Source: Fibrobacter succinogenes subsp. succinogenes S85
GTDB lineage: Bacteria; Fibrobacterota; Fibrobacteria; Fibrobacterales; Fibrobacteraceae
Assembly (NCBI RefSeq): GCF_000146505.1
Contig: NC_017448.1
Coordinates: forward strand, 1,260,001 to 1,292,000
Direction: 5' to 3'
DNA: 32,000 nucleotides
Shown here: piece by piece, positions 11,668 through 13,698 of the stretch
How positions within the stretch are numbered: the stretch's first letter is position 1
Layout: each line of letters opens with the position of its first letter
The notes under the pieces: generated by a model
Seen by the model: the letters and a program-made list of their open reading frames with translations, nothing else
Database searches by the model: none
What the model was told of the DNA's origin: nothing
Program-made: the position numbers and the translations under genes

Positions 11668-12444
11668 CTAAGGCTTACGACCGATCACGCCAATGCAAAG
11701 CTGCGTGTAGTGCATCACCGGCACAGACTGGAGGCTATCCAAAATCTTGTCCTTAATCTTTTGGTAGGCCGTTCCGTCAAGCGGATACTTCGGGAGTTCA
11801 ATACCGAACTTGAAGCAGAGCTCGCGCAGAATGCGGTAGAAAAGATTCGGGCGCATCCAGTCGCCATAGGCATAGACATATTCAAAGCCAGCGTCACGCA
11901 TGAGCTTCTTGAGTTGCCCCATCGTGAACTGTTTTTCCCAACCGGCAAACCACTTGTCCATCGCAATCAAGATATGCTTGATAACCGTGTACGGGTGGAC
12001 GGTCTGCGGCACATCGCAAAGGCAGCAACCGCCATGCTTGACGATGCGGAAGTTTTCTTGCAAGAGCGGGAGTGAATCCTTGAAATGTTCGGCCAAACCC
12101 TGATGGAACACCAAGTCAAATGTGTTGTCCGGGAACGGGGACTTGAAAGCATCGCCACGAACTAAGTGCAAATTTTTGAAGCCTTCACTCTCACGGAGCG
12201 AATTGACAATTTTCAAGCTATTTTCGGCATAATCGAGAACATACACATCGGCGCCCAAACGAGCGAGTTCGGCACTGTCGCGGCCGGTACCTGCACCGAC
12301 CTCAAGCACCTTTAGGCCCTCGAGCTTAAAATTCTTCTTAATAGCTTCTATAATAGACGGCGAAGACGGATAGACTTTGTCCATGTCGTTCTTGCGCTGC
12401 CAAAAACGGTTCCATACGGATTGATCAGGCTCTTTTATTGACAT
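11668..12444 (-). CDS. Class I SAM-dependent methyltransferase
   Basis: Motif I VLEVGAGTGRDS, followed by the acidic residue after beta2 (VYVLDY). Confidence 0.85.
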   Translation of the reverse strand: MSIKEPDQSVWNRFWQRKNDMDKVYPSSPSIIEAIKKNFKLEGLKVLEVGAGTGRDSAELARLGADVYVLDYAENSLKIVNSLRESEGFKNLHLVRGDAFKSPFPDNTFDLVFHQGLAEHFKDSLPLLQENFRIVKHGGCCLCDVPQTVHPYTVIKHILIAMDKWFAGWEKQFTMGQLKKLMRDAGFEYVYAYGDWMRPNLFYRILRELCFKFGIELPKYPLDGTAYQKIKDKILDSLQSVPVMHYTQLCIGVIGRKP

Positions 12445-12470
12445 AACGGGGAAAATATACGAAATTGATT

Positions 12471-12500
12471 AGACGAAAGACGAGAGACGAAAGACGAAAG
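12471..12500. repeat. Tandem heptamer array AGACGAR x4.3 (CTCGTCT-type on the minus strand)
   Basis: agacgaa agacgag agacgaa agacgaa ag. Read in the direction of the minus-strand methyltransferase gene it is YTCGTCT x4, ending 26 nt before that ATG. A second short repeat AGTGGTTA occurs twice at 12514..12538. Confidence 0.9.
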
Positions 12501-12833
12501 ATTATAGTAAACAGTGGTTAATGATTAGTGGTTAGTGTGTTTTGGGAAATAAGTATTCCAAAATGAAACATCGCCCACCGAAGGTATAGTTTCGATGTTC
12601 ATTATGAATACGCAAGAGCTCTTCGTTTTACATTTTCTTTCCTCTTCCGACCATTTACTGCCTTTTTTGAGAGATTCGTCGTCAGCCTTGTTGTCACGTT
12701 TTGAAAAATTTGTTATATTTTTACGACAATTTTACAAAATCACGACAAAAATAATGGGCTTTTTTGGCTCCGAAAACCGCAAAACCGACATTTAAAGGAC
12801 TTTTTGTAAAAAATTTGGAAAATTTTACACAAT

Positions 12834-12849
12834 TGGCACGCAACTTGCT
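12834..12849 (+). promoter_or_regulatory. Sigma-54 (RpoN) -24/-12 promoter
   Basis: TGGCACGcaacTTGCT matches the TGGCACG-N4-TTGCW consensus at every specified position with correct GG-GC spacing. The -12 GC lies 38 nt upstream of the sigma-factor ATG at 12886. Confidence 0.6.
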
Positions 12850-12885
12850 TTAAAAAAGCGATATTATAAGGGCAAGGTTTTTAAA

Positions 12886-13698
12886 ATGCATATTGATTCT
12901 ACCGATACTACTCTCAAAAGATACTTAGAAGACATCCGTCGTACCGCACCCCTATCACGCGAAGAAGAACAGATTCTTTTCCAGAAAGCTAAAGAAGGCG
13001 ACAAAATCGCCCGTAAAAAATTGATTTCTGCAAACATGCGTTTTGTGCTCAAAGTCGCCATCCAGTACCGTGGCTGCCCGATTCCGCTTCCGGACTTGGT
13101 CAGCGAAGGCGCTATGGGCCTCGTTCGCGCAATCGAATCCTTCGAACACACTCGTGGTCTTAAGTTCATCAGTTACGGCGTTTGGTGGATCAAGGCATAT
13201 ATTACTCGTGCTATTAACGAACAGGGTAACCTCATCCGCTTGCCGGCAAACCAGCACCTCCGCGTGCGCAAGGCTTTGCACGAACAGTCTCGCGGTAAGG
13301 AAATCAACGAAGAAATCCGTGAATTGATTCAGATCGGTCAGCGCGGCGTTTCGTTCGATAGCCCGCTCAAGGCAGACTCCAAGGCAACGTACGCCGAAGT
13401 CCTCCCGGACAGTGGCGCATCGAACCCGGAAGCCGATTCCGAAATCCAGAGCGTCGAAGCTTTGGCTCGCGACCTCATGGAACAGCTCCCGGAACGCGAA
13501 GCCCGAGTCATCACCGGCATTTTCGGTATCAACCAGGAAGCTCCGCAGACACTCCGCGAAGTGGGCGAATCTATGAACATCTCCCACGAACGTGTGCGTC
13601 AGTTGCGCGACCAGGCTCTCCGCCGTATCCGCAAGTACAACAGCAAGGACTTCTTGCAAGAAAAGAAGGACGCTTTCTTGGCCGCTATCAACAAGTAA
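12886..13698 (+). CDS. Sigma-70 family RNA polymerase sigma factor (short RpoD-like, regions 2-4)
   Basis: LISANMRFVLKVAIQY...LPDLVSEGAMGLVRAIESFEHTRGLKFISYGVWWIKAYITRAI covers regions 2.1-2.4. TLREVGESMNISHERVRQLRDQALRRIR is the region 4.2 HTH. It resembles the short primary sigma of FCB-group bacteria. Confidence 0.9.
   Translation: MHIDSTDTTLKRYLEDIRRTAPLSREEEQILFQKAKEGDKIARKKLISANMRFVLKVAIQYRGCPIPLPDLVSEGAMGLVRAIESFEHTRGLKFISYGVWWIKAYITRAINEQGNLIRLPANQHLRVRKALHEQSRGKEINEEIRELIQIGQRGVSFDSPLKADSKATYAEVLPDSGASNPEADSEIQSVEALARDLMEQLPEREARVITGIFGINQEAPQTLREVGESMNISHERVRQLRDQALRRIRKYNSKDFLQEKKDAFLAAINK

Follow-up and report, generated by a model that had tools for sequence, protein, structure and literature searches.

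A predicted sigma-54 promoter with an upstream enhancer-like array ahead of a conserved sigma-70-family gene in Fibrobacter succinogenes S85

The window analysed in this work is a stretch of 32,000 nucleotides of DNA from Fibrobacter succinogenes subsp. succinogenes S85 (contig NC_017448.1, positions 1,260,001 to 1,292,000 of the forward strand). Within this window, a plus-strand gene for a 270 amino acid (aa) protein of the sigma-70 family is separated by an intergenic region from a minus-strand operon, and the features identified at this locus are listed below by their positions in the window, those of other genes being given as genome coordinates with the prefix C1.

12444, minus strand: ATG of a methyltransferase / glycosyltransferase / flippase-like operon that forms the opposite flank of the intergenic region
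12445-12885: intergenic region between the minus-strand operon and the plus-strand 270-aa open reading frame
12691-12698, plus strand: distal half-site TTGTCACG with a reverse-oriented GACAA core, 143 nt 5' of the -24 box
12723-12729, plus strand: half-site ACGACAA; counted from the T of TGGCAC, the GACAA core is at -109, compared with -108 in other species of Fibrobacter
12742-12748, plus strand: half-site ACGACAA, located 19 bp after the copy at 12723; the GACAA core is at -90, compared with -88 in relatives
12785-12791, plus strand: weaker half-site CCGACAT, its GACAT core at -47 as in other Fibrobacter species; absent from the first-pass annotation
12823-12829, plus strand: TTTTACA, a conserved promoter-proximal element 4 nt 5' of the -24 box (more than 1 bit at -10 to -7 in 34 sequences)
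12834-12849, plus strand: predicted sigma-54 -24/-12 promoter TGGCACGCAACTTGCT, with GG at 12835-12836 and GC at 12847-12848
12859-12865, plus strand: CGATATT, located at the predicted transcription start and preceded by a run of A at 12852-12857; the block is conserved both in family f1 and in one genome of f2
12874-12877, plus strand: AAGG, a ribosome-binding-like site 9 nt before the ATG and inside the predicted 26-nt leader
12886-13698, plus strand: monocistronic sigma-70-family gene of 270 aa, with regions 1.2, 2, 3 and 4 and without region 1.1 by its Pfam domains

The 270-aa protein matches PF00140 (23.9 bits; cut-off 22), PF04542 (50.5 bits), PF04539 (27.4 bits; cut-off 25.3) and PF04545 (52.5 bits), and the presence of regions 1.2, 2, 3 and 4 places it among the group 1/2 (RpoD/RpoS-like) sigma factors. 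Its best relatives of solved structure are SigA of the Firmicutes and RpoS. However, its score against the RpoS model (TIGR02394 / NF004207) of 193.9 bits is below the family threshold of 378.7, and against the RpoD model TIGR02393 it reaches 153-158.4 bits (cut-off 354), compared with 189 and 181 bits for the other two small sigma factors of the genome. The RpoH model TIGR02392 gives 126 bits against a cut-off of 323.1 (241-323 among the RpoH models) and an RpoH box is absent from the protein, which is neither a flagellar nor a recognisable RpoH factor. The sequence of its region 2.4, WWIKAYITR, corresponds to WWIRQAITR in sigma-70 of E. coli, a difference that suggests that the -10 element is read in a modified way. 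Annotations of its orthologues in public databases are inconsistent (viz. RpoD/SigA, "primary sigma factor" or RpoH).

The sequence TGGCACGCAACTTGCT, which is located 52 nt 5' of the ATG of the sigma gene, is a perfect instance of TGGCACG-N4-TTGCW (as TGGCACG-N4-TTGCT), and its GG and GC dinucleotides lie exactly 10 bp apart in the arrangement TGGCAC-N5-TTGC, facing the sigma gene. The first-pass annotation had reported a perfect sigma-54 match at 12834-12849; our analyses confirmed these coordinates and found no other -24/-12 match in the window, even with up to one mismatch allowed. Considered alone, the window gives weak support for a promoter, as at least one match with up to one mismatch was present in 25 of 100 shuffles, and this is what speaks for the reading of TGGCACGCAACTTGCT as a chance match or a relic that does not function as a promoter in S85. 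We regard this reading as extremely improbable, since the box is perfect, correctly oriented and at the correct distance from the gene, and since the genome-wide enrichment of such sites and the invariance of the diagnostic bases in relatives, which are described below, also argue against it.

From the geometry of the promoter, with C12848 taken as -12, transcription would start near position 12860 (12858-12862), leaving a leader of about 26 nt. The leader is unstructured (its fold of -3.1 kcal/mol is weaker than those of 199 of 200 shuffles), an Rfam search of positions 12400-12950 gave no match, and the sigma gene is considered monocistronic because the next gene is convergent in relatives; on these three grounds, the intergenic region offers no rival RNA element. 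The TTTTACA and CGATATT blocks that flank the box are absent from the other S85 sigma-54 promoters that were examined. Further copies of TTTTACA are present in the window at 12626 and 12730 and, in inverted orientation, at 12805, and this element resembles a half-site of the nitrogen-regulon enhancer TTTACA-N5-TGTAAA. At the other end of the intergenic region, just 5' of the divergent methyltransferase gene, an array of three to four AGACGAA heptamers is located at 12471-12498; similar short tandem arrays (of the TTCTAAG / GAACTTA type) are found directly 5' of the genes for bacterial enhancer-binding proteins (bEBPs) at C1:2688088 and C1:3443951.

The machinery on which a sigma-54 promoter depends is encoded in the S85 genome. 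It contains one rpoN gene (C1:1974551-1976182, 543 aa, PF04552 at 172.9 bits) that appears intact, with an N-terminal region I and the RpoN box ARRTVAKYR, and eight strong bEBP genes, identified by Sigma54_activat domains (PF00158), of whose products seven also carry HTH_8. Genome-wide, TGGCACG-N4-TTGCW has 12 perfect sites, compared with about 0.8 expected from base composition and none for the reversed pattern, which corresponds to an enrichment of about 15-fold. All 12 are located 20-125 nt upstream of the start of an open reading frame on the same strand, hence ahead of genes and not inside them. The spacing is also distinctive: TGGCAC-N5-TTGC occurs in 29 copies, whereas most other spacer lengths give 4-15 (20 at spacer 0). 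Genes that are preceded by perfect sites include those for nitrogen assimilation of the glnA/gltB/PII type, dnaK, groES, htpG and clpB, and grpE is preceded by a TGGCAT-type box. Judged by the number and placement of these sites, the -24/-12 motif class is functional in S85.

Several other observations were made during this survey. Consensus sigma-54 boxes precede two unusual targets, viz. a secA-like gene (C1:2218555, 53 nt from the ATG) and a purF-like gene (C1:496536, with a leader of about 100 nt). Three identical copies of TGGCACGAAGTTTGC (C1:1233473, 2234910 and 2828440) are located far from called open reading frame starts, and they are probably parts of a repeated element or an rRNA operon and not promoters. 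One GAF-AAA+-HTH_8 protein of the bEBP family (C1:2767321-2768850) carries GALVGV where the GAFTGA loop is expected and may lack the contact with sigma-54; this protein is retained in genomes that are stripped of most other bEBPs.

The conservation of the box was examined in two families of the class Fibrobacteria, for which 34 distinct upstream sequences of orthologous sigma genes were available. In family f1, 28 of 30 orthologous loci retain TGGYAY-N5-TTGC at 51-109 nt before the ATG, and in family f2 the box is retained in 6 of the 7 loci of genera g13 and g16 (6 of the 8 f2 loci examined). No change is seen across the 34 sequences in the GG, in the A at +4 or in the TTGC (2.0 bits each), whereas variation is found at the five bases of the spacer and in the flanks, and the invariant bases are exactly those that are read by sigma-54. 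This pattern, in which diagnostic bases persist in two families while their neighbours change, is difficult to reconcile with a chance or relic match.

The box is not universal among the relatives. It is lacking in genera g2, g6, g8 and g10, in two genomes of genus g4, in one f2 genome and in the single f3 genome, and these lineages carry a sigma-70-like sequence, TTGCC-N~16-TATATTT, ahead of the orthologous sigma gene. As several lineages have a sigma-70-like promoter at the same gene, sigma-54 control of this gene must be dispensable. In two of the genera that lack the box, g10 and g8 (loci L098-L104), the orthologous sigma gene starts with GTG. In five genomes of family f2, a block akin to TTGCC-N~16-TATATTT, GGCTATATTT, precedes the sigma-54 box.

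The occurrence of these sigma-70-like promoters at the sigma gene lends some weight to an alternative in which a sigma-70 holoenzyme mainly transcribes the S85 gene as well, for example from TTGTCA-17-TATATT (12691-12719, with a start near 12726), and the box acts as an inactive sigma-54 roadblock or occlusion that damps read-through. The TTGTCA-17-TATATT sequence scores 10 of 12 and has a TG extension, the distal TTGTCA also fits a -35 element, and sigma-54 holoenzyme can bind DNA stably without activation. However, this sequence is S85-specific, with no conservation across other Fibrobacter species, and the number of sigma-70-like matches is near chance (4 found, 2.5 expected). We consider this alternative very unlikely, and two further observations that it leaves unexplained, viz. 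a palindrome and an activator gene that are seen together with the box, are described below.

Sigma-54 promoters require a bEBP that is bound roughly 80-150 bp upstream, and the first-pass annotation had proposed upstream activator sites for this promoter in the form of three copies of ACGACAA. The positions that it gave are right and two of the copies, at 12723 and 12742, are exact; the inverted site, CGTGACAA, shares only GACAA with them. The window shows no enrichment of ACGACAA (6 found, 4.9 expected), so that only the comparison with relatives makes the half-sites convincing. In the relatives, TGACAA is the most over-represented hexamer between -200 and -30, being present in 22 of 28 promoter-positive loci where 3 are expected, a figure that is inflated by the relatedness of the genomes. 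Its usual form is a GTCAT-N6-ATGAC palindrome located 70-190 nt upstream of the box, after which many Fibrobacter species have forward GACAA half-sites at -108, -88, -67 and -47, a spacing of two helical turns. The counterpart of the TTGTCACG site in relatives is the left arm of this palindrome, the arms of which have been pushed apart in S85, and the reverse half-site is found at -143 in loci of the S85 type and at -123 in other Fibrobacter species. The palindrome and the phased GACAA half-sites thus extend from 47 to 190 nt 5' of the -24 box, in keeping with the interval of -80 to -200 that is expected of upstream activator sites, and they are degenerate in S85. The proposal of upstream sites is therefore upheld as a conserved array that is linked to the promoter, while its core must be redefined as GTCAT-N6-ATGAC with phased GACAA half-sites and not as ACGACAA.

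The linkage between array and box is seen in their distribution. Palindromes of the form GTCA-N7-9-TGAC are present at 18 of 35 promoter-positive loci and at none of 14 promoter-negative loci, and the latter contain a single TGACAW in total; six promoter-positive loci are without any GTCAT/TGACA motif. The element is also nearly unique within each genome. Whole-genome searches of five relatives for TGTCAT-N6-ATGACA, with up to one mismatch, recovered the site at the sigma gene and a background-level handful of others, and in S85 GTCA-N8-TGAC is under-represented (21 found, 58 expected). The other sigma-54 promoters of S85 do not carry the enhancer motif, and TGACAA-type clusters elsewhere in this genome form no coherent regulon. 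On this comparison, the S85 half-sites are a local degenerate form of a conserved, promoter-linked and nearly unique enhancer-like element. A roadblock would leave unexplained why a palindrome situated 70-190 nt upstream is seen only together with the box.

Related motifs were observed upstream of a paralogous sigma gene, C1:1499605. The region C1:1499155-1499605 and its counterparts (loci L048-L077) contain ATGACA(A) direct repeats and a promoter-like TTGCMC-N16-TGACAC motif that are conserved across genera, and the S85 sequence TTGCACGCACCATTCT upstream of this gene is identical to the sigma-54 box at 12 of 16 positions, with the GG and GC destroyed. A third tier of the cascade that would act through a TTGCMC-N16-TGACAC regulon was considered and rejected, as the genome has no other intergenic copies of this motif.

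Taken together, we consider it highly probable that the 270-aa sigma gene is transcribed by sigma-54 RNA polymerase from the box at 12834-12849 through a bEBP that is bound upstream, which would constitute a two-step relay. RNA polymerase with sigma-54 would start transcription of the sigma gene near 12860 from the -24/-12 box, and formation of the open complex would need an AAA+ enhancer-binding protein, which is predicted to bind the GACAA-type array (12691, 12723, 12742 and 12785), whose half-sites recur about every 20 bp along one face of the helix. The output would be a second sigma factor, giving a signal-gated relay from sigma-54 to a factor of the sigma-70 family. We infer the sigma-54 initiation at the box, the position of the start, the binding of the half-sites by a bEBP and the identity of this bEBP. 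A cascade of this kind had been suggested by the first-pass annotation, and it is supported by the presence of rpoN and bEBP genes, by the genome-wide enrichment of sigma-54 sites, by the footprint of the box across two families and by the enhancer-like array that co-varies with it.

No activator gene adjoins the sigma gene in S85, and none is linked to it at the two loci that were examined in deeper relatives, one of which has GTCAT palindromes and a -24/-12 box whose spacing is one base short. In order to identify a candidate partner by its distribution, the bEBPs of four promoter-negative and four promoter-positive genomes were assigned by BLAST to the eight S85 proteins, and the two candidates with a matching pattern were then searched for in 61 genomes of the family. 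One of these, C1:3442584-3443951, which encodes a protein of 455 aa with GAFTGA and HTH_8 and is unlinked to the sigma gene, has orthologues in all 29 promoter-positive genomes and in none of 12 promoter-negative genomes of family f1. The match between activator and promoter also holds inside genus g4 (G004, G015 and G030 compared with G021 and G026), and a GAFTGA-type loop is present in all 20 orthologues that were fetched (19 GAFTGA, one GSFTGA). On the strength of the 29/29 and 0/12 distribution, this protein is the best candidate partner, and the sigma promoter may be its only or main target. The second candidate, C1:1166530, was rejected, as the promoter-positive genomes G003, G004, G015 and G007 yielded no match to it and the promoter-negative genome G026 carries it.

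Other characteristics of the candidate are as follows. No Pfam match was obtained for its N-terminal 130-135 aa, even at E<=5, its gene lies in the order rho - proC - activator - YhhN-family membrane protein, and this neighbourhood contains no sensor kinase. A search for GACAA/GTCAT sites before the eight S85 bEBP genes, which would indicate autoregulation, gave nothing convincing. When recognition helix and enhancer are compared, genus g4 differs in both, whereas in genus g12 GTCAT is retained alongside a different helix. The 29/29 and 0/12 pattern rests perhaps on few independent evolutionary events, two or three, and the promoter-negative genomes have lost most of their bEBPs (3-7 per genome). 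On balance, we lean slightly towards C1:3442584-3443951 being the activator of the sigma promoter, on the basis of these genome comparisons.

The identity of the upstream regulator is also where the main competing explanation applies. The box could be a working sigma-54 promoter while the GACAA/GTCAT elements serve as binding sites for a regulator other than a bEBP, or for one of the two universal bEBPs, C1:902739 (REC-type) or C1:2146408 (AAA+-HTH only), the 3442584 protein having some other role. We consider this explanation rather unlikely, with a modest share of the probability. All promoter-positive genomes encode the universal bEBPs, and family f2, in which the promoter also occurs, yielded no clear orthologue of the 3442584 protein. 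A non-bEBP regulator must also be kept in consideration because TGACA(A) repeats are found before C1:1499605 without an intact -24/-12 box, which would fit a classical transcription factor that acts at both genes. On the other hand, the palindrome co-varies with the sigma-54 box (18/35 compared with 0/14 loci), it is located at a typical enhancer distance, and the 3442584 protein is the only bEBP that is coextensive with the promoter. The co-occurrence of this GAFTGA activator with the box is the second observation that a sigma-54 roadblock would leave unexplained. A bEBP acting on a sigma-54 promoter from the upstream array therefore remains our preferred reading.

The sigma factor that would be produced by this relay is unusual in its conservation. 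The S85 genome encodes three small RpoD-like sigma factors and no long RpoD, and of these three, the 270-aa protein is the least RpoD-like by model score, yet the best conserved among relatives, as indicated by the following identities.

270-aa sigma (12886-13698): 97 % in the G048 group, 92 % in genus g12, 71 % in genus g10
Sigma C1:2852830: 90 % in the G048 group, 83 % in genus g12, 63 % in genus g10
Sigma C1:1499605: 68 % in the G048 group, 66 % in genus g12, 54 % in genus g10

Orthologues of the 270-aa sigma (at least 67 % identity) are distributed over three families, all within a single class of the phylum, with matches in 48 of the 101 genomes searched, and none were found in the other classes among these genomes. 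Its standing as the best conserved of the three RpoD-like factors, its phylum specificity and its altered -10-reading region raise the idea that it is a principal or co-principal sigma factor of the class Fibrobacteria and not a minor alternative factor, an idea that we hold to be doubtful. If it were a principal or co-principal factor, a dedicated single-target enhancer-binding protein and sigma-54 would gate much of the transcription programme in Fibrobacter and several neighbouring genera, and sigma-54, which already heads chaperone and nitrogen genes, would stand at the top of the regulatory hierarchy.

F. succinogenes is a main rumen degrader of cellulose, and to our knowledge almost nothing is known of its transcription control. 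A literature search that paired Fibrobacter with sigma-54 or RpoN returned no paper on a Fibrobacter sigma-54 regulon, and within the literature searched, a relay from sigma-54 to a second sigma factor has not previously been reported in this phylum. The present work provides a testable wiring, consisting of a candidate sensor-activator, a unique palindromic enhancer, a sigma-54 promoter and a very conserved sigma factor. As chaperone and nitrogen genes are also located behind sigma-54 promoters, it suggests that sigma-54 is unusually central in this lineage. Further, the sister lineages in which the sigma-54 promoter has been replaced by one of the sigma-70 type and the activator has been lost represent a natural experiment on the gain and loss of relays.

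The placement of sigma-54 upstream of a sigma-70-family gene is a recurrent design. It is seen in the flagellar hierarchies of Vibrio and Pseudomonas-type bacteria, in which sigma-54 acts upstream of FliA, and in the P6 promoter of E. coli rpoH, which is sigma-54-dependent; the Fibrobacter gene differs from these cases in being neither flagellar nor a recognisable rpoH. A survey published in 2025 found that genes of COG0568 (sigma-70/sigma-32) are consistently associated with predicted sigma-54 promoters across phyla, and it also covers such promoters before sigma genes of the FliA type (COG1191); Fibrobacter is not mentioned in it (PMC12316311).

The closest known system is the Rrp2-RpoN-RpoS pathway of Borrelia burgdorferi, in which sigma-54 directly transcribes rpoS (PMC3037356, PMC1976401, PMC2940757), and the Fibrobacter relay, as predicted here, is a new instance of this known type of cascade. 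In both systems a -24/-12 promoter directly precedes a monocistronic gene for an RpoS/RpoD-like sigma factor, an NtrC-family AAA+ activator encoded away from its target is required (a prediction in Fibrobacter), and the end product is a second sigma factor that controls a regulon of its own (likewise a prediction in Fibrobacter). The TTTTACA element beside the Fibrobacter promoter also recalls the BosR sites at Borrelia rpoS. The two systems belong to different phyla, the Fibrobacter sigma scores below the RpoS threshold, and the Fibrobacter relay is a prediction from sequence. Borrelia Rrp2 is reported to act without a defined upstream enhancer, whereas a conserved palindrome and phased half-sites are found upstream of the Fibrobacter promoter. 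Within this recurrent design, the Fibrobacter relay would thus be distinguished by an unlinked and apparently single-target activator, a distinctive enhancer, an exceptionally conserved sigma factor and the natural replacement of its promoter in sister lineages.
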